The notes under the pieces are model-generated. The model searched no databases. It saw nothing but the letters and a program-made list of their open reading frames with translations, and had not been told where the DNA came from. This document shows positions 11,755 to 26,388 of a DNA stretch of 64,000 nt, one piece after another; the stretch's first letter is position 1; each line of letters starts with the position of its first letter. The stretch spans positions 2,391 to 66,390 of the forward strand of contig JAEZTF010000007.1 of NCBI GenBank assembly GCA_023443725.1. The letters run 5' to 3'. Both the position numbers and the translations under genes were made by a program. Source of the stretch: Candidatus Parcubacteria bacterium (lineage in GTDB: Bacteria > Patescibacteriota > Microgenomatia > UBA12405).

Positions 11755-13704
11755 ATGATCACCCTTGATTCTCCTGAATTAAAAAATATTTCTCCTGAAA
11801 AACTTGGTGAGCTATTAATTGAAGCCAAAAAAGCTTATTTCACTACCGATAAACCAATCATGGATGATCACACTTTTGATGTTTTAGAAGATATTCTTCG
11901 TCAAAAACTGCCATATCATCGAATCTTTACTAAAGCCGGCACAACAAAATTTGTCACCGGATTTGATAAAAAAAAGCATCAAATTTCTATGGGATCTCAA
12001 AATAAAGTCAACACTTTTGACGATTTAGTTCATTATTTTGAATTAAAAAGTGCTGCCGCAGGCAACGTTGATATGCGAAGCATATCTTACGTTGTCCAAC
12101 CAAAATGTGATGGTATTTCTTTAGAGATAGAGTATCAAGATGGAAAACTTGTCGATGCCGTCACTAGAGGAGACGGTAAAACAGGTGATGTAATTACTCA
12201 AAATGTCGTCAAAATGAAAAATTTTGTAATGAATATGCCAAAGGATTTTTCTGGGTCAATTCGTTGCGAGATTGTTATGTTAAATAAAGATTTTGAAAAG
12301 TTAAATCAAATTTCTACCGAGAAATATTCCAATTCTCGCAATGCCACTTCCGGTATTTCTCAAAGATTAGACGGTCAATATTCAGAATATTGTAGTCTTT
12401 ACGCTACAGATCTACTTTTTTCAAATCAATTAATCGAAAAAGAGTCTGAAAAAATAGATTTTCTAAATAAAAATGGTTTTGTCGGTGTTGAAAGTTTTCA
12501 TTGTTCTACTTTTGATGAAATAGAAAATATTTACCAAAAATTTTTATTTAAAAATAGACAAGATTATCCATTTGAAATAGACGGTTTAGTTGTAAAAATA
12601 GAAGACTTAAAAATTCAAACTCAATTAGGAATCAAAAATAATCGCCCTAAAGGTCAAGTTGCTTACAAATTTCCAGCACGTTCAAGTCAAACCAGAATCA
12701 ACAAAATTGATTGGCAAGTCGGACCAATGGGAACAATTACTCCTGTAGCCCAAGTTGACCCCATCGAAGTTTCTGGAGCTGTTATTACATATGCCTCTTT
12801 AGCTAATTACGATTTAATCAAAGAAAAAGACATTAATATTGATGACATAGTCGAGATTCAAAGAAGGGGAGATGTCATTCCTCATATTGAAAAGGTTATT
12901 ACCAAAATAAATTCTGGCCATGTTTTGGCCCCAACTCATTGTCCTTCATGTAAAACACCATTAGTTATCGATAATAAATTCATTCGTTGTCCTAATATCT
13001 CCAAATGCCCTGATCAAATTTTAGGGTCACTAAGACTTTTTTGTGACACTTTAGAAATAAAAGGTATTTCCGATAAAACCATTGCCAAGCTTTATCAATT
13101 AAATTTAATTAAACTACCTGGTGATTTTTATAATCTCAAAGTAACTGATTTTGAAAATATTGCTGGTTTAGGAAACAAATCTGGCAACAATATTGTTAAT
13201 GAAATTCAAGCTAAAAAAAATCTAACTCTTAAACAAGTCTTAGATGCTGCTATTATTCCTAACTTTAGTTCTCAAAGAATTATTCAAATCATCAATGCCG
13301 GTTTTGATACCCCAAAAAAACTTCTAAATATTACTATAGAACAACTTGAAAGTTTACCCGGTGTTCAAATTACTTTAGCCAAAAAAATCTATCAAGGTAT
13401 TCAAGACAGAAAAGATTTTATTGAATCAATATTAAAAAATATTACCTTAAAGTTAACGATTGGTAATCAGAAATCTATCATATCAGGGTTATCATTTGCT
13501 ATTACTGGAGATCTTTCTGTCCCTCGAAAAGTTTTGGAAGAAAAAATAATTTCTCTTGGGGGAAAACTATCTTCATCAGTAACTTCAAATACTGATTATT
13601 TGATTACCAACGAATTAGAGTCTAGTTCAAGCAAATTCAAAAATGCCAAAAAATTCGGCACAAAAATAATTACAGAAGATGAGTTTAATCATTTAGCAGA
13701 ATAA
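11755..13704 (+). CDS. ligA: NAD-dependent DNA ligase
   Basis: KxDG adenylation motif (KCDGIS), an OB fold, a Zn finger (CPSC...C..C), HhH repeats and a C-terminal BRCT-like segment. 649 aa. Confidence 0.9.
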   Translation: MITLDSPELKNISPEKLGELLIEAKKAYFTTDKPIMDDHTFDVLEDILRQKLPYHRIFTKAGTTKFVTGFDKKKHQISMGSQNKVNTFDDLVHYFELKSAAAGNVDMRSISYVVQPKCDGISLEIEYQDGKLVDAVTRGDGKTGDVITQNVVKMKNFVMNMPKDFSGSIRCEIVMLNKDFEKLNQISTEKYSNSRNATSGISQRLDGQYSEYCSLYATDLLFSNQLIEKESEKIDFLNKNGFVGVESFHCSTFDEIENIYQKFLFKNRQDYPFEIDGLVVKIEDLKIQTQLGIKNNRPKGQVAYKFPARSSQTRINKIDWQVGPMGTITPVAQVDPIEVSGAVITYASLANYDLIKEKDINIDDIVEIQRRGDVIPHIEKVITKINSGHVLAPTHCPSCKTPLVIDNKFIRCPNISKCPDQILGSLRLFCDTLEIKGISDKTIAKLYQLNLIKLPGDFYNLKVTDFENIAGLGNKSGNNIVNEIQAKKNLTLKQVLDAAIIPNFSSQRIIQIINAGFDTPKKLLNITIEQLESLPGVQITLAKKIYQGIQDRKDFIESILKNITLKLTIGNQKSIISGLSFAITGDLSVPRKVLEEKIISLGGKLSSSVTSNTDYLITNELESSSSKFKNAKKFGTKIITEDEFNHLAE

Positions 13705-13760
13705 CAAATCGACTGCTAACTGAACTATCAAAAATTATTTTCCCTATCTTTAGGTATATT

Positions 13761-13786
13761 TATATATCAATATATATTGATATATA
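13761..13786. promoter_or_regulatory. 26-bp perfect palindrome TATATATCAATAT|ATATTGATATATA upstream of pth
   Basis: Read directly from the sequence. It sits in the 120-bp ligA-pth intergenic region and is a candidate operator or promoter element. Confidence 0.3.
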
Positions 13787-13823
13787 TCAAATACTATCTA
13801 TGTCTCAATGATAAAATACTTTT

Positions 13824-14378
13824 ATGAAACTCATTTTTGGTTTAGGTAATCCAGATTCAAAATATAAAAACACTCGTCATAACCTTGGGCAGAAAATTAT
13901 TAAAGAATTCGTACTTAAGACATATAATCAAAAATTAAGCGTCAAAAAAAATCTTGATTCTGAAACTTTTGAAACAGGTGCAGACCTGCCTGCCGGCAGA
14001 CAGGGGAGTCAAAAAATAATTTTTGCTATTTCAACAGGTTTCATGAATAATTCAGGTATTCCAGTTAAAAAAATATCTCAATTTTATAAAATTAATCCAT
14101 CTGATATCTATATTCTCCACGACGATCTTGATTTAGGAGTAGGGGATTACCGTATTCAATTTGATCGAGGTCCAGCTGGTCATAATGGGATTAAATCAAT
14201 TATTGAAAATTTTGGTACTCAACAATTTAATCGTATTCGTATCGGTATTGGTAAGCCTCAAAATAATATTCCAGTAGAAGACTATGTTTTAGAACCTTTT
14301 TCAAAAGAAGAATCGAATATAATAAACTCTCTTACTTCAAAAATTTTTGAAGAAATTAAAAATATTATCAATTCATAA
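13824..14378 (+). CDS. pth: Peptidyl-tRNA hydrolase
   Basis: N-terminal LIFGLGNPDSKYKNTRHNLG and the catalytic His and Asp context (HDDLDL) match Pth. Confidence 0.85.
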   Translation: MKLIFGLGNPDSKYKNTRHNLGQKIIKEFVLKTYNQKLSVKKNLDSETFETGADLPAGRQGSQKIIFAISTGFMNNSGIPVKKISQFYKINPSDIYILHDDLDLGVGDYRIQFDRGPAGHNGIKSIIENFGTQQFNRIRIGIGKPQNNIPVEDYVLEPFSKEESNIINSLTSKIFEEIKNIINS

Positions 14379-14379
14379 A

Positions 14380-14450
14380 GGGCTCATAGTTAAACGGTAT
14401 AACGCGTCATTCGCATTGACGTATTCTGGGTCCAATTCCCAGTGGGTCCA
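14380..14450 (+). tRNA. tRNA-Ala (anticodon CGC) candidate
   Basis: Manual fold: acceptor GGGCTCA/TGGGTCC with the G3:U70 wobble that is the tRNA-Ala identity element; D-stem GTTA/TAAC; anticodon stem CGTCA/TGACG; loop TTCGCAT (U33, anticodon CGC, A37). The T-loop TCCAATT is atypical. No encoded CCA. Confidence 0.5.
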
Positions 14451-14455
14451 CTATC

Positions 14456-15997
14456 ATGATTAAAATAATTAAATCAGTTACAAAATCAATTGCTCACAGT
14501 GTTAAACACGACCCAGAAATCACTCGAATAAAAAACAAATATCCAAAAACCTTTAAGTTTATATCTCGTAGATTTACTAAACATCATAAATATGGACTTT
14601 ATCTAACAATTGGTGTTGCTCTAACCATTTTTTTTGCTAGTATTTTTATAAAAATTCTCAAAAATTACTTTAGTCATGCCAAATTAATTCAATTCGATCT
14701 CCGTGTTATCAATCTCTTTAGTACTTTTAGATATGAAAAATTAAATCATCAAGCTCTATTTGTTACTTATCTAGCCAAAGGTGAAATTATTGCAGTTGGA
14801 GTTATTGTTATTAGTTTGATTTTGATTTTAATTAAACAATGGCGTTTTTTAAAAGTCTTATTAATTTCTGTTTTAGGTGGAGAATTATTTGTTTGGATTA
14901 TTAAAAATTTAATTGATCGTCCCCGTCCACCTTTAGTCAGTGCTTTAGTTAATGAAACTACTTATAGTTTTCCTAGTGGGCATACTTTTGTGGCTATCGC
15001 TTTTTATGGACTCTTGGGATATTTGATTATCCAATCAGAAAGAAATAAATTTCTCAAAATCATTAGTCTAGTTTTCATATCCTTCTTAATTGTTTCTATT
15101 GGCTTATCTCGAATTTATTTAGGAGCTCATTGGCCATCAGACGTTCTAGCTAGTTTTGTTTCTGGAGCCGCTTGGTTAAGTATTTTAATTACTTGGTTAA
15201 AAATAAAAAATAAATTTATTCCCTTACCAAAACCAGAAAATCAATTTAAAAAAATAACTATTATTATTTCCAGTTTTTTATTGTTCTTAATCTGGATAAT
15301 TTTTATTATTGGTTTTTATTTTACTCATCCGCTTCAATCCAAATCAGAGATTATAGAAACTAAAACAATTATTGAAACCAAAAATATTCCTCAGCAGCTA
15401 TTTCAAAACCTTCCCAAAGTTAGTGAATCGATTAGTGGTATTGCTGCCGAACCAATAAATATGGTTTTTGTTGGAACAAAAGAAACTATTAATGACGCTT
15501 TCATTAAATCTGGTTGGTATCTCTTAGATGGACCCAGTTTAAAATCTTATTCCAAAATAATAACTTCATTATTGTTTGACCAGGCCTATCCAACTACACC
15601 AGGTTTACCAGTTTTTTGGGATACTCAACCCAGTCAATTTGCTTATGGTAAACCAACTACCCCAAAATCAATTAGTTCTCGAGAACATATTCATTTTTGG
15701 GAAACCGATTTTGTTACCCAAGATTATCAAAACATTTGGGTAGGTACTGCTCATTTTGACCAACAAATTAATAAAAAATTAGGTATGGTTATGCCTTTTC
15801 ACACTACTGAAACAAAAGTTGATATTCAAAGAGAAAACATCAAAAATGAATTAGAAAAAAATGGATTTATTCAAAAGACAGAAAAAATTGATTTAACTGG
15901 ATTATCTTATGGTATTAAAAAAGGGAGTGGTAATAGTTTTCTTACCGATGGTCAAGCCTACATTATATTCATTAAAAATAATAATGAGAAAAGATAG
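14456..15997 (+). CDS. PAP2-family lipid phosphatase fused to a C-terminal LssY_C-like domain
   Basis: Membrane N-terminal half with the PAP2 motifs KX6RP-like, PSGH (FPSGHT) and SRIYLGAHWPSD. The ~250 aa soluble C-terminal domain is of the type commonly fused to PAP2. Confidence 0.7.
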   Translation: MIKIIKSVTKSIAHSVKHDPEITRIKNKYPKTFKFISRRFTKHHKYGLYLTIGVALTIFFASIFIKILKNYFSHAKLIQFDLRVINLFSTFRYEKLNHQALFVTYLAKGEIIAVGVIVISLILILIKQWRFLKVLLISVLGGELFVWIIKNLIDRPRPPLVSALVNETTYSFPSGHTFVAIAFYGLLGYLIIQSERNKFLKIISLVFISFLIVSIGLSRIYLGAHWPSDVLASFVSGAAWLSILITWLKIKNKFIPLPKPENQFKKITIIISSFLLFLIWIIFIIGFYFTHPLQSKSEIIETKTIIETKNIPQQLFQNLPKVSESISGIAAEPINMVFVGTKETINDAFIKSGWYLLDGPSLKSYSKIITSLLFDQAYPTTPGLPVFWDTQPSQFAYGKPTTPKSISSREHIHFWETDFVTQDYQNIWVGTAHFDQQINKKLGMVMPFHTTETKVDIQRENIKNELEKNGFIQKTEKIDLTGLSYGIKKGSGNSFLTDGQAYIIFIKNNNEKR

Positions 15998-16277
15998 ACC
16001 TACGCTTTTAGGTGATCAGCTTGAAAAATTTAAAGAAACTTTAGCCAAAAGACAAAAATACATTAAAAATGATTTTCAAGCCTATGGCTTGGAATTAGCC
16101 CAAGAGTTAGGCGATTGGAAAAATCGTTCTCTCTATATTAGACTTGCCAAAAATACAGACAGAAAAGTTCTAGACAAAGCCCGATATTTTGTAAAAGACC
16201 AAAATCCAGGTGCAATAAAAACTCCATATAAACTTTTTATGTGGAAGTTAAAACAGCTCAAACTCGAACAAAAATAG
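15984..16277 (+). CDS. Hypothetical small basic protein
   Basis: ORF beginning MRKDRPTLLGDQ. It overlaps the PAP2 gene end by 14 nt and has no recognised motif. Confidence 0.35.
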   Translation: MRKDRPTLLGDQLEKFKETLAKRQKYIKNDFQAYGLELAQELGDWKNRSLYIRLAKNTDRKVLDKARYFVKDQNPGAIKTPYKLFMWKLKQLKLEQK

Positions 16278-16292
16278 TATAATAAAGAGTTT

Positions 16293-17354
16293 ATGACCTT
16301 TATCAAAAAACATCTAAAAAAAATAATTATAATTGTTATTGTTCTGTTTATTTCTGGTTTTAGTATTTATAAAGCCAACGCTAGTACCAAAACTTCAGAA
16401 ATTCCTAAATTTAACGAAAAAAAAGAAACTGTTGTTTCACCTAAAAGAGAAACCATAAAAGAAGAAATTACTTTAACAGGTTCGGTTGATGCCTCAACCA
16501 AAGCTAACCTTCAATTTCAAACTAGTGGTCAACTTGCTTGGGTCGGAGTTAAAGTAGGGGATAAGGTCAAAAAATATCAAGCTATTGCCAGTCTTAATAA
16601 AGAAGTCTTAAAAAAACAACTCCAGGCCGATTTTAATACTTATCGATCTGCTTTAGCTACTTTTGATGATACTCAAGACGACTATAAAACTGAAAAAGAC
16701 AATCTTACTTTAACCGATGACATGAAACGAATTTTAGTTCGTTCTCAAAACACTTTAGATAATTCCGTTATTAACTACGAACTTCAAGATTTGGCTATCA
16801 AGTATGCTACTTTAACCAGTCCTATTAATGGCATTGTTACCGATGTAGAACAGCCAAATAGTGGTGTCAATATTACTCCTGCTTCGGCTACTTTTTCTAT
16901 TATTGATCCAACCAGTATTTATTTCAAAGCTCAAATTGATCAGGAAGATGTTACTAGAGTAAAAGTTGGTGATAAAACTACAATTACACTTGATAGTTTT
17001 CCAGATAAAACTTTTGAATCTGAAGTCACTTATATTTCATTTACTCCAGTTTCTGGTCAAACTTCAACCGTTTACGAAATTAAATTTAAATTAGTTGGCA
17101 ACGATAATCAAGATATTTCTTATCGTTTAGGTATGGATGGTGATGCTGTTATTTCTCTTCGTCAAGTTGAAAATGCTCTTACCCTTCCCGCAGATGCTGT
17201 TCGTCAAGATAAAGACGAAACATATGTTCTTATTAAAACCGCCGACAACCAAATTTTAACTAAAAAGACAGTAAAAACTGGGATTGAAACTGATGATACT
17301 ATAGAAATTTTAGAAGGACTTTCCGAAAATGACCAAGTCGTCATCTCAAAATAA
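16293..17354 (+). CDS. Periplasmic adaptor subunit of a tripartite ABC exporter (HlyD/MacA family)
   Basis: N-terminal TM anchor, with coiled-coil and beta-barrel/lipoyl-like segments. It is immediately upstream of an ABC ATPase and an FtsX permease. Confidence 0.75.
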   Translation: MTFIKKHLKKIIIIVIVLFISGFSIYKANASTKTSEIPKFNEKKETVVSPKRETIKEEITLTGSVDASTKANLQFQTSGQLAWVGVKVGDKVKKYQAIASLNKEVLKKQLQADFNTYRSALATFDDTQDDYKTEKDNLTLTDDMKRILVRSQNTLDNSVINYELQDLAIKYATLTSPINGIVTDVEQPNSGVNITPASATFSIIDPTSIYFKAQIDQEDVTRVKVGDKTTITLDSFPDKTFESEVTYISFTPVSGQTSTVYEIKFKLVGNDNQDISYRLGMDGDAVISLRQVENALTLPADAVRQDKDETYVLIKTADNQILTKKTVKTGIETDDTIEILEGLSENDQVVISK

Positions 17355-18042
17355 TTCTAAAGTAATTTTAGAATTAAAAAATATCACCAAAACTTACATT
17401 ACGGGTACTAATCAATTTAATGCTCTAGACAACGTTAGTTTAAAAATATATCAAGGTGAATTTGTTTCTATTACTGGACCATCAGGGTCCGGCAAATCAA
17501 CTTTAATGCATATTGTAGGCCTACTCGATAATCCTACCTCTGGTGAAGTTTTATTAGAAGGTCGTGATATTTCTCAACTTAAAGAACATCAGTTAGCTCA
17601 AATTAGAAATATAACGTTGGGTTTTGTATTTCAACAATTCAACCTTTTGCCAAAAACATCATCTTTAGAAAATGTCTTATTACCATTACTTTATTCTGAT
17701 GTTCCCAAAAAAGATCGTCAAAAAATTGGCACGGATCTTCTAATCAAAGTTGGTTTAGGAGACAAATTTAGCAACACTCCTGCACAACTTTCTGGAGGAC
17801 AACAACAGCGAGTTGCTATTGCCAGAGCTTTAGTTAATAATCCAAAAATTATTTTAGCCGATGAACCTACTGGTAATTTAGACAGTAAATCAGGAGAAGA
17901 AATAATGAAATTTTTTCATCAATTAAATAAAGAAGAGGGTAGAACTATTGTTTTTGTCACTCATGATATGGATTTGGCCAAACAAGCCAATCGAACTATT
18001 ATTATAAAAGACGGCAAAATATCGGAGGAAAAACATGCTTAA
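17329..18042 (+). CDS. ABC transporter ATP-binding protein (MacB/LolD-type)
   Basis: Walker [10 protein letters not shown], signature [15 protein letters not shown] and Walker [12 protein letters not shown]. Confidence 0.9.
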
Positions 18043-19261
18043 ACCCAGCTTTAATGATTTACTAAAATCTAGCTTTCGATCAATATTGAAAAATAAGAGT
18101 CGAACTATTTTAACTTCTTTAGGAATTATTATTGGAGTAACTTCTGTTATTCTTTTAACTTCGATTGGTAATGGTCTTAAAAAATATATCACCGATCAAT
18201 TTGATTCTCTTGGTGCCAATTCAATTTATGTCTCTCCTGGAAAAGTTTTTAACGACAATGGCGGCTTTGCCCAAGGTGGTATGGCATCTATGATGACTAC
18301 TAGTTTCACCCAAAAGGATTTTTCCTATCTAGAAAGAAAAATAAAAGATGTTGAAATTATCCCTGCTAGTGCCGTTTTCGCCAATATAAGTTCTTCTTTT
18401 AGTACTCAAAAAAATATTGAGATTGACGGGTCAACTGAAAATTTTGGAATTATCAACAATGTTGAGCCGTCTGCTGGTAATGGTCGTTGGTTTACTACAG
18501 AAGAAAATGATAAAAAAACACCAGTAATAGTTTTAGGTTATCAACTAGCTCAAGACTTATTTCCAAAGTCAAGCGCAGTTGGTAAAAAAGTTATTGTTAA
18601 AGGAAAAACTTTAAAAGTTATTGGTGTTAGTGATAAAAAAGGATCTTCTTTTGGTGGCCCAAGTTTTGACAAGCAAGCATATATTCCAATTGAAGTTGCT
18701 TATGATTTATCAGGCAAAACTGATATTCAAAGCATAATTGTAAAAGTTAAAAATAAAGACTCAATTGAATCTACAAAAAAAGAAATTACAAATGTAATGC
18801 TTGAGCGTTATGACGATAAAGATGCTTTTTCTGTTTTCGACAGCTCACAACTTCTTAGTTCAATTAATTCCATTATCAGCATGCTCACTATTGGTCTTAC
18901 CGGAATTGCGGCTATATCTTTAGTTGTCGGTGGAATTGGAATTATGAATATTATGTTAGTGTCAGTCACTGAAAGAACTAGGGAAATTGGTCTTCGAAAA
19001 GCCATTGGCGCTTACCCTCGAGCTATTTTAATTCAATTTTTAATTGAGGCTGTTATTTTATCTTGTATTGGTGGGGCAACTGGGGTCATTTTAGGATACC
19101 TAGGCACCTTAACCATAAAGCCATTCTTTCCAGCTCAAGTTACTATTTCTTCTGTTATTTTAGCTTTTGGAGTTTCTTCAATGGTTGGAATAATTTTTGG
19201 AGTTGCTCCAGCTCGTAAAGCCTCTAAATTATCTCCAATTGAAGCTTTAAGGTACGAATAG
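18035..19261 (+). CDS. ABC transporter permease, FtsX/MacB family
   Basis: N-terminal TM, a large periplasmic domain, then three C-terminal TMs, the typical FtsX-like topology. Confidence 0.85.
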   Translation: MLKPSFNDLLKSSFRSILKNKSRTILTSLGIIIGVTSVILLTSIGNGLKKYITDQFDSLGANSIYVSPGKVFNDNGGFAQGGMASMMTTSFTQKDFSYLERKIKDVEIIPASAVFANISSSFSTQKNIEIDGSTENFGIINNVEPSAGNGRWFTTEENDKKTPVIVLGYQLAQDLFPKSSAVGKKVIVKGKTLKVIGVSDKKGSSFGGPSFDKQAYIPIEVAYDLSGKTDIQSIIVKVKNKDSIESTKKEITNVMLERYDDKDAFSVFDSSQLLSSINSIISMLTIGLTGIAAISLVVGGIGIMNIMLVSVTERTREIGLRKAIGAYPRAILIQFLIEAVILSCIGGATGVILGYLGTLTIKPFFPAQVTISSVILAFGVSSMVGIIFGVAPARKASKLSPIEALRYE

Positions 19262-19278
19262 TCTGATATTATTAATTA

Positions 19279-19842
19279 GTGAAATATAAATTTCTTAATT
19301 ATCTGGTTCCAGCGGTCATTGTATCAATAATAATTTCATTGTTTTGGGTCATTTCTAATGTTAATAATTTACAAATCATATATTTATTTCTCGGACTAAT
19401 TATTGGCATATTCGTTCTTGATGTTGATTACTTAATCTTTTGGTTTTTTATCAAACCAAACAACGAAGAAAGTCGTTTAATTAAATTAGCTTTTGAAAAT
19501 AAACAATTTAAATCTATTATTAAAATAATCCAAAACTCACACCAAAATCACTATAATCTTATTTTTCATCATTATTTTTTTCAGGTTATTTTAACCTTAT
19601 TTTCTTTATTTATTTTTACATCTACCACTAATACTTTTGCTTCAGCACTAACATTTGGTCTTAATCTACATCTTATTATCGACGAAATAATCGGATATAA
19701 AACTGATCCAAAAATAGTTCAAAAATGGCTTTTTGCTCGTGAACCAAAACAACTTCCTGTTGTTTTTTTGAAAAAATATATCACTGTTTTTGTAGTTTTT
19801 AATATTCTATTTACTTATATTTTAATTCAGTCCAAAATATAA
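19279..19842 (+). CDS. Hypothetical polytopic membrane protein
   Basis: Four predicted TM helices. It lies downstream of the ABC permease and upstream of the HEPN-like ORF. Confidence 0.4.
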   Translation: MKYKFLNYLVPAVIVSIIISLFWVISNVNNLQIIYLFLGLIIGIFVLDVDYLIFWFFIKPNNEESRLIKLAFENKQFKSIIKIIQNSHQNHYNLIFHHYFFQVILTLFSLFIFTSTTNTFASALTFGLNLHLIIDEIIGYKTDPKIVQKWLFAREPKQLPVVFLKKYITVFVVFNILFTYILIQSKI

Positions 19843-19845
19843 AAT

Positions 19846-20340
19846 ATGGTTTTTTCTTTTCCAGAAATTTTTAAACAAGCTGATCAATATTTATCTTCTC
19901 ATCAACAAGAGCTCTTAAAAGATACTCAAACTATATTTAATAGATTAGAATTGCGCGATGGCATAAGTGATTATTCTTTTTTAGTTTCTCCAGTAGCTAA
20001 GTTATATGAAGGTTTTTTAAAAGATTTCTTTCTAAAAATAGGTATTATTTCAGAAGTAGAATACGAAAGTGATCGTTTCCGAGTTGGTAAAACATTAAAC
20101 CCTTCACTTCGATATAAACGATTTTCTGTATTTCAAAAATTATCTGATTCTCACGAAAAAGGAGAAGAGCTTGCTGAAACTCTTTGGGACGCTTGGAAAT
20201 TTGGACGAAATGAAATCTTTCATTATTTTCCTGGTAATTACAAAAATTTGACCAAACAAGAAGCCGAAGATAGGATTGCTCTTTTATTAAAAGCTATTAT
20301 TCAAGCTGGCGAGTTTCTCAGTGAAAATAAAACTATTTAA
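19846..20340 (+). CDS. HEPN-like domain protein (putative RNase toxin-like)
   Basis: C-terminal motif GRNEIFHYF fits the HEPN R-x4-H (RN-x3-H) signature, and the protein is helical. This is a single-motif inference. Confidence 0.35.
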   Translation: MVFSFPEIFKQADQYLSSHQQELLKDTQTIFNRLELRDGISDYSFLVSPVAKLYEGFLKDFFLKIGIISEVEYESDRFRVGKTLNPSLRYKRFSVFQKLSDSHEKGEELAETLWDAWKFGRNEIFHYFPGNYKNLTKQEAEDRIALLLKAIIQAGEFLSENKTI

Positions 20341-21259
20341 ATTCTTTTATTACATCGGTACAAGAATTTAATTTCAACTCTTTTTTATATCCACACAAAA
20401 AATCCTTATCACTGCACCCACCACAAATATTTTTTTGATCACAATTAGAACAACCATTTAAAGAATCAACAAAACTTTTAATTAATTTTTCTGGTTTGTC
20501 AGATATTTTTCCAATCGAGTTTGATGATTCACAACAACCATAAATTAATCCATTAGATTGTAAAGAAATTTGGCTACAACCAAAGTTTTTAGGAGGTATA
20601 GTACGATAATTTCGTTTAATATTCAAAATCTGTTCTTTTGTTAAAGATTCCATATTATTTTCTATTGCCAATAAATGATTTTCTGTAAACGGTTTTGATT
20701 TTTGAGTTATAAAATTTATTACTATTTTTTGTCCTGTTAATTTAAATAAATAGTTATTAAAATTTTTCACAAAATCATAAGAATCTGGTGTAACCAAAAA
20801 CATTATTTCCAGATGAAAACCCAATTTTATTCCATGTTTTAAAAACTTTATTGTTCTATTAAAATTTCCCTTACCTCGATTTTTATCATGAATTTTTTCT
20901 GGACCATCTAAAGAAACTAACAATTGACAATTATTTGGGTTCTTAATTTTATCCAAATTATCAATAGTTCCATTGGTAATTATTGAAACAAAAATATTCT
21001 GATCAGATAAACAGTTTATTAAACCTATAAAATCTGGCATTATAAACACTTCACCACCACAAAAAGTAATCGATTTTAAACTTTTATCCAAAGAATTAAG
21101 GTAGGTATTGTATCTTTTTATAAAATCAAGTATTTGTTCATTTGTTAAGATACTTTCAATCTTTTTGGTGTAACAATACTTACAGTTTAAATTACAAATT
21201 TCTAGTGGTGAAATATAAATATTTTCTATAGAAGTAACCATTTTAATCTTATTGATCAA
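20333..21259 (-). CDS. Radical SAM enzyme with a C-terminal SPASM/twitch auxiliary Fe-S domain
   Basis: CNLNCKYC (CxxxCxxC) at residues 22-29. The C-terminus carries about 9 Cys, including CSNCDQKNICGGC and FLCG...C, which is SPASM-like. Confidence 0.8.
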   Translation of the reverse strand: MINKIKMVTSIENIYISPLEICNLNCKYCYTKKIESILTNEQILDFIKRYNTYLNSLDKSLKSITFCGGEVFIMPDFIGLINCLSDQNIFVSIITNGTIDNLDKIKNPNNCQLLVSLDGPEKIHDKNRGKGNFNRTIKFLKHGIKLGFHLEIMFLVTPDSYDFVKNFNNYLFKLTGQKIVINFITQKSKPFTENHLLAIENNMESLTKEQILNIKRNYRTIPPKNFGCSQISLQSNGLIYGCCESSNSIGKISDKPEKLIKSFVDSLNGCSNCDQKNICGGCSDKDFLCGYKKELKLNSCTDVIKEFK

Positions 21260-21289
21260 TAAAGCTACAGATTATACAATATATACAAT

Positions 21290-22309
21290 ATGTTTTCCCA
21301 ATTTAAAGGCCAATTTATAAAAGAATTTGTTGTTCAATATATTCGTGAGTTCTTTATTAGTAAAAATTTTCATGAAATTGAAACTCCAACTCTTCTGCCA
21401 AAAATACCAATAGAACCAAATTTATATCCATTAAAAACTGTCTGGCAAGAAAGAAAAATTGATTTTTATTTACCAACTTCACCAGAAAGTTCACTTAAGA
21501 AAGTTATTACTAAAGGAGTAGGGAATTGTTTTACTATTTCCAAAGTTTTCAGAGATCTGGAAAATATTGGGCCCACCCACAATTTAGAATTCTCTATGCT
21601 TGAATGGTATGAAATGAATAAGACCCATCACGATATTGCCAAGACTACTCAAGAACTAATTTTAAATTGTTATCATTCTGTTCTCAAAAAACAAAACAAA
21701 AAACTGACATCTATTCTTAATTATCAAAATCAAAATATTGATTTATCATCTCCTTGGTATGAGTTCACCTTATCTCAACTTTTTCGGGAATACGCTAATA
21801 TCGATTTATCAAAAAATCTAGACACTAATAGTATTCTTAAAACAGCAAAGAATAAAGGCTATAATATTGACGGTATTAATACATGGGAACCACTTTATAC
21901 TCAAATTTTTATTAATGAAGTTGAATCAAAACTACCATTAGATAAGCCAGTAATAATTTTCGACTACCCAACACAACTTTCACCTCTCTGTAAGAAATGT
22001 CCAGATTCTCCTGGATTTAGTCAAAGATTTGAGTTTTATATTGGAGGTATGGAAATAGGTAACGCTTATACTGAACTTACTGACAGTCAAGAGTTAGAAA
22101 GAAATTTTATTGAAGAAACAAAAAATCGAAAAGAAAATAATCTTCCAGTTCATCCATATGACAAAGAATTTGTTGATGCAGTTGGGAAAATGCCTGAGTG
22201 TGCCGGCATTGGACTTGGTGTCGATCGACTGGCCATGCTTTTCAATAATTCTCAAAATATTGAAGATGTTCTTTATTTTTCAACATCTCAACTCATAAAG
22301 TCCGAATAA
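21290..22309 (+). CDS. epmA: EF-P--(R)-beta-lysine ligase EpmA (PoxA/GenX; class II LysRS catalytic-core paralog)
   Basis: Strong pattern matches to E. coli EpmA: TSPE, FRDLE, HNLEFSMLEWY, RFEFYIGGMEIGNAYTELTD and GIGLGVDRLAML. At 339 aa it lacks an anticodon-binding domain. Confidence 0.8.
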   Translation: MFSQFKGQFIKEFVVQYIREFFISKNFHEIETPTLLPKIPIEPNLYPLKTVWQERKIDFYLPTSPESSLKKVITKGVGNCFTISKVFRDLENIGPTHNLEFSMLEWYEMNKTHHDIAKTTQELILNCYHSVLKKQNKKLTSILNYQNQNIDLSSPWYEFTLSQLFREYANIDLSKNLDTNSILKTAKNKGYNIDGINTWEPLYTQIFINEVESKLPLDKPVIIFDYPTQLSPLCKKCPDSPGFSQRFEFYIGGMEIGNAYTELTDSQELERNFIEETKNRKENNLPVHPYDKEFVDAVGKMPECAGIGLGVDRLAMLFNNSQNIEDVLYFSTSQLIKSE

Positions 22310-22348
22310 ACCATTTGACATGAATTTCAAATCGGGTAATATATAGTC

Positions 22349-22546
22349 ATGTCTAAAAAAGTAATTCTCGATCAAAACAAATGTATTGGATGTAATACAT
22401 GTCCACTTTTAAACCCTGATGTTTTTGAAATGGACACCACTATTTATAAAGCTAAAGTTAAAGCTCAACCAGCTGAAATTGATCAAGCCACTCAAACAGC
22501 TATTGATTCATGTCCAGTTGGAGCTATATCAATACTAGAAGAATAA
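22349..22546 (+). CDS. Small ferredoxin (single [4Fe-4S]/[3Fe-4S] type)
   Basis: CIGCNTCP ... CPVG in 65 aa. Confidence 0.75.
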   Translation: MSKKVILDQNKCIGCNTCPLLNPDVFEMDTTIYKAKVKAQPAEIDQATQTAIDSCPVGAISILEE

Positions 22547-22565
22547 TTATTAATTAATCAAACAA

Positions 22566-23603
22566 ATGAAAAAAATTGTTAAAAAGAAAATTAAACTTCC
22601 AGAAGTTAAATTACCTCAAATTGATACTTCAAAAAGTGTCCAGATTCCATTAGTTGGAGTTATCGTTTTTTGTTTACTATTAGCTGCTTCTTCATTTTTT
22701 GCAGGTATTTCTTGGATAAAAATAAAGGGCAGTACCACTAGCGCTACTAATGCAAAGAACGTATTTGCAGCAGTTAAAAATAGTAAACCAGAATTTAATT
22801 TCTTTGTTATGAGTTTTTGTCCATATGGTAATCAAATTGAAACAGTCATAAAACCAATTGCTGATTTATTAAAAAATAATGCTGATATCCATCCTCGCTA
22901 TATTTTTGAAAAAATAGCAGATTTAGAAGGTTATTGTAAACAGACCAGTGGTGATGTTAATCAATGTGCCGCTTATGTCAAATCTGGCTATTTTGCTACC
23001 GAATCAGAATGTCAAAAAACCGTTAATGAATACAGTAAATCGTGTCTTGATGAAAAGAATTATCTAAAAATAGGTAATGTTTTTTATTCATCACTTCACG
23101 GCAGGATAGAAGCTAATCAAAATGTTAGAGAAATTTGTGCTTTTAACATGAATGAAGATAAAACCAATTGGTGGAATTTTGTCTCCAATGTTAATACTAA
23201 TTGTACTTCCGAAAATGCCGATACCTGTTGGGAAGAGCAAGCCAAAAAAGCTGGTTTCGACACTAATAAAATTACCGAATGTTTTAATACCCAAGCTAGT
23301 GATTTAATTGAAAAAGAAATTGCCTTGACCACTCAATACAAAGTAACCGGCTCTCCAACACTTATTATCAATGGTGTCAATTTTCCACCTGAAACCGCCT
23401 ATACTGAATCTGGCGATGGTACTTTAAAAGTTGGTGATAAAGTTATTAAACAAGCCGATTTCAGGACTTCTAACGCTGTAAAAGAAGCTGTTTGTGCTTC
23501 ATTCAAAAAAGCACCTAAAGAATGTAAAACTGAGCTAAAGGAAACTACAGCTAATGCTAGTGCAAACACTGCCACTGCTAATGCAGGTGGTAGTTGCAAC
23601 TAA
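22566..23603 (+). CDS. Membrane-anchored, Cys-rich secreted protein with a thioredoxin-like (DsbA-like) segment and a degenerate CPYG site
   Basis: Signal anchor, then FFVMSFCPYGNQ in a DsbA-like context where the second Cys is replaced by Gly. About 14 Cys in total and an Ala/Thr/Asn-rich C-terminus. Confidence 0.45.
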   Translation: MKKIVKKKIKLPEVKLPQIDTSKSVQIPLVGVIVFCLLLAASSFFAGISWIKIKGSTTSATNAKNVFAAVKNSKPEFNFFVMSFCPYGNQIETVIKPIADLLKNNADIHPRYIFEKIADLEGYCKQTSGDVNQCAAYVKSGYFATESECQKTVNEYSKSCLDEKNYLKIGNVFYSSLHGRIEANQNVREICAFNMNEDKTNWWNFVSNVNTNCTSENADTCWEEQAKKAGFDTNKITECFNTQASDLIEKEIALTTQYKVTGSPTLIINGVNFPPETAYTESGDGTLKVGDKVIKQADFRTSNAVKEAVCASFKKAPKECKTELKETTANASANTATANAGGSCN

Positions 23604-23624
23604 AAAAATATTCAATCAAAATTT

Positions 23625-23660
23625 CCCCTCTCCGATAGTCGTCGGAGAGGGTTTTTGTTG
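23625..23660 (+). terminator. Rho-independent terminator
   Basis: CCCCTCTCCGA-TAGTCG-TCGGAGAGGGG followed by TTTTTGTTG. Confidence 0.6.
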
Positions 23661-23727
23661 ATAAAATATCATCAATGAAACTTAACTCACATCAAAGAAA
23701 AAATTTATTTTTATTTTATTATTAACC

Positions 23728-24264
23728 ATGAAACTTAATTCTCATCAAATCAGACAGAGTAGGGAAGTGGATGCCAAAAAAATGCAAACAAATATTAAAC
23801 GTAACCCTATTGTTTTAGTCCTTGATAATGTTTTAGACACTTACAATATTGGTTCTTTTTTTAGACTTGCTGATGCTATTGCTGCTGAAAAAATCTGTCT
23901 TTGTGGACCAGTTGTTACTCCTCCCAATATTAAAATTCATCGAGCTTCAATCGGTACTTGGAAATGGATCCCCTGGGAACATTTTGAAAATACCATTGAT
24001 TGTATAAATCAACTCAAAAAGGATGGCTATCAAATAGTTGCCTGTGAACAGGATAAAACTAGTGTTGATTACAAATCAGCTAAATATAAATTTCCTGTCG
24101 CCATTATTGCTGGTAGTGAAAGTTATGGTGTTTCACCAGAAATTTTAGCCAAAACCGATAAAATAATTGAAATTCCTATGTATGGTATTAATGTTTCTCT
24201 TAATGTTTTAGTCGCTACCTCAATTATTAGCTACGACGTCATCTCAAAAATACCCTTAAAATAG
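23728..24264 (+). CDS. SpoU/TrmH-family RNA 2'-O-methyltransferase
   Basis: SPOUT motifs: NIGSFFRLADAIAA, IIAGSESYGVS and NVSLNVLVATSI. Confidence 0.8.
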   Translation: MKLNSHQIRQSREVDAKKMQTNIKRNPIVLVLDNVLDTYNIGSFFRLADAIAAEKICLCGPVVTPPNIKIHRASIGTWKWIPWEHFENTIDCINQLKKDGYQIVACEQDKTSVDYKSAKYKFPVAIIAGSESYGVSPEILAKTDKIIEIPMYGINVSLNVLVATSIISYDVISKIPLK

Positions 24265-24346
24265 GCCAAAAAAAAGTCAAAAATTTTGTCATTTTTATCA
24301 CTTTTTCTTATATTTATTTAACGTATCTTTCCAATAAATTTGCTTA

Positions 24347-24375
24347 TTGTAAAGCTATTTTACCTCTGTTAGAAT
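24347..24375 (+). promoter_or_regulatory. Candidate sigma70-type promoter for gyrBA (TTGTAA-17 nt-TAGAAT)
   Basis: Hexamers read from the sequence with 17-nt spacing, about 70 nt upstream of the gyrB ATG. Confidence 0.3.
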
Positions 24376-24435
24376 GAAAATGTTCCTAAAACAGGTACAA
24401 AATTTATTTTTTAGTAATATTTAAAAAAGATTTAG

Positions 24436-26388
<1,953 letters not shown>

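Follow-up and report, generated by a model that had tools for sequence, protein, structure and literature searches.

Introduction

The nearest characterised relatives of the protein described here, RnlA and LsoA, are the toxins of the anti-phage toxin-antitoxin (TA) systems RnlAB and LsoAB (PMC8266594, PMC3710099). They are prophage- or plasmid-borne, their HEPN domain (the 'Dmd-binding domain'; PF18869, PF19034; PDB 6y2p, 5hy3) is accompanied by TBP-like or ribonuclease (RNase) H-like N-terminal domains, and their antitoxin genes are of the RnlB/LsoB type. Here we analyse two adjacent genes in a 64,000-nucleotide (nt) stretch of DNA with a GC content of 31%, called the window throughout, whose proteins match Candidatus Shapirobacteria (Patescibacteria, or candidate phyla radiation, CPR) at up to 100% identity. 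The upstream gene encodes a membrane protein of 187 residues, TM187, and the downstream gene a protein of 164 residues for which our analyses support a HEPN domain of the RNase LS (RnlA/LsoA) branch. In Candidatus Shapirobacteria the two form a core pair with vertical inheritance and not a typical mobile TA or phage-defence module.

By prediction, the 164-residue protein has the helical HEPN fold in common with RnlA and LsoA, and it also shares their D-Y-x-x-x-x-x-P-x-x-(R/K)-x-x-E-G-x-L-K helix and R-(N/H)-x-x-F-H motif. It differs from them in being a HEPN domain nearly throughout, with no TBP-like or RNase H-like N-terminal domain, in having membrane proteins as partners where RnlA and LsoA have an antitoxin, and in a lysine at the position of RnlA R255 and an invariant loop, F-R-(I/V)-G-K-x-L-N-P, of its own. 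Its family is chromosomal, core and vertical in Patescibacteria. The HEPN-MNT systems (HepT-MntA, type VII TA; MNT, minimal nucleotidyltransferase) resemble the locus in their small stand-alone HEPN protein, R-x4-H motif and tight two-gene unit, whereas the locus has no nucleotidyltransferase partner, its sequence kin lie in the RNase LS branch and not in DUF86/HepT, and its distribution is not patchy. Ire1 and RNase L (KEN domains) and Cas13b with Csx28 offer a conceptual analogy only: in these systems a HEPN RNase is joined physically or genetically to a membrane protein, a link that hints at RNA cleavage governed by membrane state, but there is no homology past the HEPN superfamily, and the locus has neither a kinase domain nor a CRISPR context. 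To our knowledge, nearly all HEPN RNases described from bacteria are toxins of mobile TA, abortive-infection, restriction-modification and CRISPR systems.

A HEPN domain with a complete catalytic set

An initial annotation of the locus had described both open reading frames (ORFs) and had read the peptide GRNEIFHY in the second as the signature of a HEPN RNase. ORFs and peptide are present as described. GRNEIFHY spans residues 120-127 of the HEPN protein, with the R121 codon at 20206-20208 and the H126 codon at 20221-20223. The features of the pair are:

19279-19842, + strand: TM187, multi-pass membrane protein of 187 residues, GTG start (ORF)
19846-20340, + strand: HEPN protein, single domain of 164 residues, RNase LS (RnlA/LsoA) type, ATG start (ORF, profiles, AlphaFold/Foldseek)
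19969-20022, + strand: HEPN helix motif D42-Y-S-F-L-V-S-P-V-A-K52-L-Y-E55-G-F-L-K59 (hhalign against RnlA)
20206-20223, + strand: R-x4-H motif R121-N-E-I-F-H126 (aligned with RnlA R318...H323 and the equivalent LsoA motif)

On its own, the R-x4-H motif is weak evidence and does not rise above chance: of the 58 ORFs in the window with 150 residues or more, 9 contain R.{4}H and 16 the looser R.{4,6}H. We judge the motif to be real because it is conserved, with R121, N122, F125 and H126 invariant down to 28% identity. In the roughly 30 sequences that reach this depth, D42, K52, E55, K59, R79, G81, P86, W114 and W117 are invariant as well, and the family-specific invariant loop F-R-(I/V)-G-K-x-L-N-P occupies residues 78-86. 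The arginine is followed by a polar residue (N122), as the HEPN motif requires, and R121-N122-x-x-F125-H126 is unchanged throughout alignments A1, A2 and A3.

Searched against the PDB, a family profile built from diverse members gave a sole real match, to LsoA (5hy3_A, E 0.0016), which spans the whole domain (profile positions 13-156 against LsoA residues 200-341). The AlphaFold model of the HEPN protein is all-helical (predicted local distance difference test, pLDDT, 86; predicted template modelling score, pTM, 0.85). LsoA was also among the top Foldseek matches of this model in the PDB (5hy3_A; template modelling (TM) score 0.62, root-mean-square deviation 3.5, probability 1.0), together with RnlA (6y2p, TM scores 0.63 and 0.57) and 4nqf, a 'HEPN domain protein'; the Foldseek probabilities for the LsoA and RnlA matches were 0.97-1.0. 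Alignment of A2 with E. coli RnlA by hhalign paired D42...K52..E55...K59 with RnlA D245...R255..E258...K262, and R121-NEIF-H126 with RnlA R318...H323; the RnlA numbering was checked on the translated rnlA gene. Four of these RnlA residues, R255, E258, R318 and H323, are those essential for activity (PMC8266594). Taken together, these results support the 164-residue protein as a HEPN domain of the RNase LS branch with the complete catalytic set K52/E55/R121/H126. The HEPN call of the initial annotation is thereby borne out both by the profile match to LsoA, with the four catalytic positions aligned, and by the predicted fold, which matches HEPN domains best. NCBIfam returned nothing for the 164-residue protein. 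A phmmer match to DNA polymerase gamma B (5c53_B, E 3e-5) was rejected as an artefact in which a 39-residue stretch was counted twice in a tandem construct; its per-domain E is about 1.3 and the match fades with the family profile.

The membrane protein encoded upstream

The TAA stop codon of the TM187 gene lies at 19840-19842 and the ATG of the HEPN gene at 19846. The initial annotation was right to place a membrane protein gene immediately upstream, but the protein has five predicted helices where it counted four, and the gap is 3 nt and not 4. The five long hydrophobic helices, together with two short amphipathic helices in a basic loop, emerge from the AlphaFold model (pLDDT 89, pTM 0.84) and the hydrophobicity pattern, and the protein has a cytoplasmic insert of roughly 35 residues. 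From the charge distribution, the N-terminus and both long loops are predicted to be cytoplasmic; the long loops bear the invariant motifs P-N-x-E-E-S-R and W-L-F-A-R-E-x-K-Q-L-P.

TM187 has 177 homologues from Shapirobacteria/Patescibacteria, nearly all of them 187 residues long. In alignment A4, the invariant polar residues include D50 in L-D-x-D-H, E64/S65 in P-N-x-E-E-S-R, H91, H97/H98 in F-H-H-Y-F-F-Q, H131 in N-L-H-L-L-x-D-E, and W150-E155 in W-L-F-A-R-E. D50, H97, H98 and H131 lie in or at the ends of hydrophobic helices, as do D48, H51, D135 and E136, which are conserved at 90% or more, and H91 sits in the preceding loop. As a pattern of conservation, these polar and histidine residues together suggest a metal site. 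No solved-structure relative resembles the TM187 model. The YdjM family (PF04307) gave weak matches, far below threshold, in 20 of 34 TM187 family members (best E 0.0068), and hhalign of TM187 with E. coli YdjM covered 16 columns only (E 0.12), around the single motif N-L-H-L-L-x-D-E. What we take to be the YdjM motifs L-P-D-I-D-H and S-H-I-L-A-D resemble L-D-x-D-H and N-L-H-L-L-x-D-E of TM187.

No MNT or other antitoxin-like gene was found among the ORFs in 12000-26000, in agreement with the initial annotation. Nor does an antitoxin gene of the RnlB/LsoB type adjoin the HEPN gene, whose neighbours are the five-helix membrane protein gene and a radical-SAM gene. RNA families and tRNAs are likewise absent from the TM187-HEPN region.

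A core gene pair of Candidatus Shapirobacteria

Upstream of the pair, Pfam domains confirm the exporter genes that the initial annotation had placed there:

16293-17354, + strand: HlyD-type adaptor
17329-18042, + strand: ABC ATPase
18035-19261, + strand: MacB-type permease (MacB_PCD/FtsX domains)

The MacB stop (19261) is separated from the TM187 start by 17 nt on the same strand. To follow this arrangement, we compared the window proteins by tblastn with 80 species-representative loci (L003-L082) whose HEPN proteins are 55-86% identical to that of the window. The gene order sm122, HlyD, ABC, MacB, TM187, HEPN, ferredoxin, VSR_TRX, SpoU, GyrB is kept. In 78 of the 80 loci the TM187 gene immediately precedes the HEPN gene, and in 64 of these 78 the two overlap by 4 nt (TM187 stop, HEPN start), which suggests translational coupling. 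TM187 is a conserved and probably translationally coupled partner of the HEPN protein, in line with the partner role that the initial annotation had considered for the membrane protein, and the adjacency that it had named as a check is kept in related genomes, with a related membrane ORF in some of the more distant loci described below. Three loci (L036, L070, L073) have none of the three exporter genes at this position and keep TM187-HEPN. In two others (L051, L053) the TM187 position is taken by an unrelated ORF on the opposite strand, and the HEPN gene is intact with its catalytic motif. These replacement ORFs (L051 5477-5899, - strand; L053 4592-5056, - strand) encode 140-154 residues with no obvious hydrophobic stretch.

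Median identity to the window copy is 81% for GyrB, 76% for the ABC ATPase, 71% for SpoU, 66.6% for the HEPN protein, 66% for MacB, 55% for Pth, 54% for HlyD and 47% for TM187. The HEPN protein is therefore slower-evolving than Pth, HlyD and MacB, and over the loci its identity follows that of GyrB (r=0.82). The HEPN gene behaves as vertically inherited and under strong purifying selection. Neither TM187 nor the HEPN protein has a match in PADLOC-DB at E<=1, and searches of the phage, plasmid and IMG/VR viral-contig collections and of PHROGs turned up no relatives of the HEPN protein. The initial annotation had set the pair among TA, abortive-infection and other defence modules; this framing is not supported, given the core synteny, the correlation with GyrB and the lack of phage, plasmid, viral and PADLOC relatives in these searches.

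Many of the contigs in this set are titled 'uncultured Gammaproteobacteria bacterium' (third-party-annotation metagenome-assembled genomes) and carry the full Shapirobacteria-type gene order with protein identities of 55-97% to the window. The Gammaproteobacteria names on these records are evidently placeholders or errors.

Relatives and architectures in other Patescibacteria

A profile run exhaustively against 1.84 billion cluster representatives found only 159 clusters at E<=1e-3, most of them stand-alone proteins of 160-220 residues. With a profile of distant members, the number rose to 3024 clusters (90% identity), many of which carry precomputed PF18869 or PF19034 marks. The source names among the matches listed all belong to Patescibacteria (Shapirobacteria, Woesebacteria, 'Patescibacteria group'). 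A HEPN relative is present in the genomes of at least 565 GTDB species.

Besides the stand-alone form, P0246 and P0257 (383 aa) consist of the HEPN domain fused to a C-terminal CPBP/Rce1-like intramembrane protease. Read by eye, the sequences of P0361, P0364, P0366 and P0373 have a long hydrophobic N-terminal region, apparently of several membrane helices, before the HEPN domain, and P0375, P0382 and P0386, which match the family profile more weakly, have N-terminal RNase HIII-type (TBP-like) motifs in this place. The latter combination is the RnlA-like layout of Anantharaman et al. (PMC3710099), and P0375 matches LsoA directly (E 0.0031). P0386 (595 aa, from an ENA metagenome) further shows, by eye, an RNase HII/HIII-like catalytic region with the motif G-I-D-E-A-G-K-G-D-Y-F-G-P-L-V, in addition to the RNase HIII-type N-terminal motifs and the HEPN domain. 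It would then be an example of the 'two-headed' RNases that Anantharaman et al. 2013 (PMC3710099) predicted.

Ad hoc profiles were applied to 80 metagenome loci akin to those of the distant members, and each feature was counted over the loci with enough flank. A small ORF with 4-5 helices (~155 residues) adjoins the HEPN gene upstream in 20 of 65 loci, a CPBP gene adjoins it on the downstream side in 23 of 59, and 15 of 48 have both. The CPBP partners have intact catalytic motifs, with EExxxR and HxxxN in all 23 and FxxxH in 19 of them, and in L086 the CPBP gene begins 3 nt past the HEPN stop. Long contigs of other Patescibacteria show a divergent PBP1a gene followed by HEPN, CPBP, DUF5667, NrdR and ribonucleotide reductase. 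At times a (d)CMP-kinase-like gene stands between the HEPN and CPBP genes; a nuclease-kinase pairing of the Las1-Grc3 kind was considered and rejected, as the interposed P-loop kinase looks like an archaeal-type (d)CMP kinase and not a polynucleotide kinase. Since the HEPN gene also occurs alone, there is no strict dependence on an adjacent partner.

Matches of the small upstream ORFs to the TM187 profile are weak (1e-4 to 1e-6). Their helix layout and a few motifs (G..G.YFLD, P.P and F..TSS) are those of TM187, of which they lack the insert, given here as 45 residues, and the histidine/aspartate motifs. CPBP proteases (Rce1-like, PF02517; MroQ, myxosortases) thus adjoin or fuse with the HEPN relatives of other Patescibacteria, whereas a CPBP profile finds no CPBP gene in the window. 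The idea that TM187 is a cryptic CPBP was dropped: its profile showed no detectable similarity to CPBP sequences, whether those of the separate partners or those within the fusion proteins. We read TM187-HEPN as the local form of an older Patescibacteria arrangement of small membrane protein, HEPN protein and CPBP protease, which some lineages have as separate genes and a few as fusions, and whose CPBP gene is not at the Shapirobacteria locus.

Several further features recur in these distant loci. A P-type cation ATPase gene lies downstream of the HEPN gene in 12 of 59 loci; in one subgroup (L127, L133, L135, L137, L151, L153, L162, L163, L167, L171) it follows directly and encodes a type II enzyme of ~820-880 residues. 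A few other loci have the ribosomal protein L1 gene upstream. In L084-L089, L173 and L174, which are non-Shapirobacteria, a class A penicillin-binding protein (PBP) gene (Transgly and Transpeptidase domains) is divergently upstream of the HEPN gene or HEPN-CPBP fusion, and farther out there are often a GH18 gene and another PBP gene. That cell-envelope genes recur around the HEPN gene might be a hint to its function. In L173 (4859-4996) and L174 (2615-2752), an ORF of 45 residues with one hydrophobic helix (MARRKQEEGTVLNTTLIAVIVFAVTIFLGTIIFLIFSALGFLPAS) stops 4 nt short of the gene for the HEPN-CPBP fusion, and may correspond, in minimal form, to the membrane partner encoded upstream.

Possible functions of the pair

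On balance we think it probable that the HEPN protein, inherited vertically with TM187, is an endoribonuclease that is associated with the membrane, is metal-independent and serves in housekeeping or envelope stress. By analogy with RnlA (PMC8266594), it would cleave RNA without a metal and be active as a HEPN dimer. We infer that its synthesis would be stoichiometric with that of TM187, that contact with TM187 would keep or regulate it on the cytoplasmic side of the membrane, and that its role would more likely be housekeeping or envelope-stress-coupled RNA cleavage than mobile TA or abortive infection.

Several observations weigh against this reading, and we set them here beside the alternatives. 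In a single-sequence Pfam search, the window protein gave only a partial match to PF18869 (HEPN_RnaseLS; E 0.018), and its 15.8 bits miss the curated cut-off of 29. PF18869 is matched by all 37 aligned family members (best E 1.9e-5) and PF19034 (RnlA-toxin_DBD) by 17 of the 37, in every case below the cut-off, and the Foldseek E-values of 0.18-0.64 are non-significant taken alone. These sub-threshold matches, the frequency of the bare motif in long window ORFs and the spurious match of the same short stretch to DNA polymerase gamma B could be taken to mean that R-x4-H arose by chance in a helical protein with no HEPN relationship. We find this scarcely credible, given the match of the family profile to LsoA over the full domain, the first rank of LsoA and RnlA by fold, the pairing of all four RnlA catalytic positions with invariant residues and the PF18869 match in every member. 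A further point is that K52 stands where RnlA has the substrate-binding R255, a conservative arginine-to-lysine change that is invariant in the family. It would suit a non-catalytic adaptor or regulatory HEPN-like domain that binds RNA, nucleotides or a partner and regulates TM187 or CPBP without cleaving RNA; some HEPN domains are indeed non-catalytic (PMC3710099), and the CPBP fusion and the invariant loop at 78-86 could reflect a protein- or lipid-binding surface. Loss of R-x4-6-H is typical of non-catalytic HEPN domains, however (PMC3710099), and in this family R121, N122, H126 and E55 are invariant throughout, which makes an adaptor improbable in our view.

Other points of this kind concern the link to TM187: conserved adjacency within one order-level clade could be plain inherited synteny and not functional coupling, and the putative homology of TM187 with the distant upstream ORFs is argued from weak profile matches and position. 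As to the exporter, the pair might be an accessory that is co-transcribed with it and needed for its function, its regulation or immunity to its substrate. The 17-nt gap on the same strand, the presence of the exporter upstream in most Shapirobacteria-type loci and the lack of terminator-like sites in our scan are compatible with this. Promoter-like sites numbered 33 against 26 expected, and both scans are uninformative in a sequence of 31% GC. The co-transcription suggested by the initial annotation is thus possible, but a functional link is very improbable, as three loci keep the pair without the exporter, and the distant relatives adjoin genes for PBP1a, CPBP, P-type ATPase or ribosomal protein L1 and no ABC exporter. 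Finally, the pair could be a two-gene TA or abortive-infection module, with the HEPN RNase as growth-arresting toxin and the membrane protein as antitoxin, as immunity factor or as a sensor that releases the RNase on phage attack or membrane damage. Intact catalytic residues, tight coupling of the two genes and the anti-phage toxins RnlA and LsoA as nearest characterised relatives all speak for it, and in type VI-B CRISPR systems the membrane protein Csx28 accompanies the HEPN RNase Cas13b (bioRxiv 10.1101/2021.11.02.466367). Against it stand the slow, vertical evolution of the HEPN gene inside a conserved housekeeping block, the lack of PADLOC, PHROGs, phage, plasmid or IMG/VR relatives, and the lack of an RnlB-like or MNT-like partner. 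Two Shapirobacteria lineages (L051, L053) have moreover lost TM187 from its position and kept an intact HEPN gene, and of the sampled distant loci about two thirds are without the small membrane ORF and about 60% without CPBP at the locus. Some TA modules become fixed in chromosomes, and core-like inheritance is therefore compatible with a toxin role. Because the closest characterised relatives are toxins, we regard the TA alternative as unlikely rather than negligible.

Going beyond the membrane-associated endoribonuclease that we favour, we tentatively raise a bolder proposal: a domesticated, membrane-coupled core HEPN RNase of Microgenomates-type Patescibacteria, working with a small membrane protein and ancestrally with CPBP, either in Ire1-like signalling from membrane state to RNA cleavage or in lineage-specific membrane-tethered RNA decay or processing in genomes that now lack many standard RNases. 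In the tiny genomes of Patescibacteria, an RnlA/LsoA-type HEPN domain with an intact active site acts like a core gene, being single-domain, slow-evolving and syntenic, and it is repeatedly joined by overlap or fusion to membrane proteins, among them a predicted-active intramembrane protease. If it is an active RNase, it would represent a toxin domain domesticated for essential RNA processing or decay, or else a new pathway of RNA cleavage coupled to the membrane, in a bacterial radiation that is major but poorly understood; either version of a membrane-coupled core RNase, if true, would be a housekeeping use of a domain otherwise nearly confined in bacteria to toxins and defence. Thousands of 'hypothetical proteins' gain a function-level annotation, and a testable three-gene module is defined. 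The RNase LS branch of HEPN is itself an already known kind. The single-domain form, the invariant loop, the restriction to Patescibacteria, the core behaviour and the association with small membrane proteins and CPBP, fusions included, appear to be undescribed in the literature that we searched, where we found no paper joining HEPN with CPBP/CAAX proteases or with Patescibacteria.

Neighbouring genes in the window

Two genes stand between the HEPN and ferredoxin genes of the window:

20333-21259, - strand: convergent radical-SAM/SPASM-like gene (Pfam and NCBIfam)
21290-22309: class-II aminoacyl-tRNA synthetase (aaRS)-like gene, tRNA-synt_2 domain (Pfam and NCBIfam)

The first overlaps the 3' end of the HEPN gene by 8 nt. 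The aaRS-like gene was detected at this position in only 11 of the 80 related loci (L003-L082), and the radical-SAM protein of the window has no match in them at E<=1e-5; the two genes (20333-22309) are therefore a variable insertion within an otherwise fixed gene order. The aaRS-like gene may be of the EpmA/PoxA type, which we note as a suspicion only. In L051, a different convergent protein with a radical-SAM-type C-x-x-x-C-x-x-C motif is encoded downstream of the HEPN gene.

At the upstream end of the block, the small ORF sm122 (15909-16277) overlaps the 3' end of the PAP2/LssY_C gene and matches no Pfam or NCBIfam family. More than 60 related loci have it, with identities of 47-80%, and in all of them it directly precedes the HlyD gene or, in loci without the exporter, TM187. 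Since the gene called in L001 encodes 97 residues, the true start of sm122 probably lies within the ORF. Further upstream, tRNA-Ala(CGC) at 14380-14451 begins 2 nt past the stop of the peptidyl-tRNA hydrolase gene (13824-14378).

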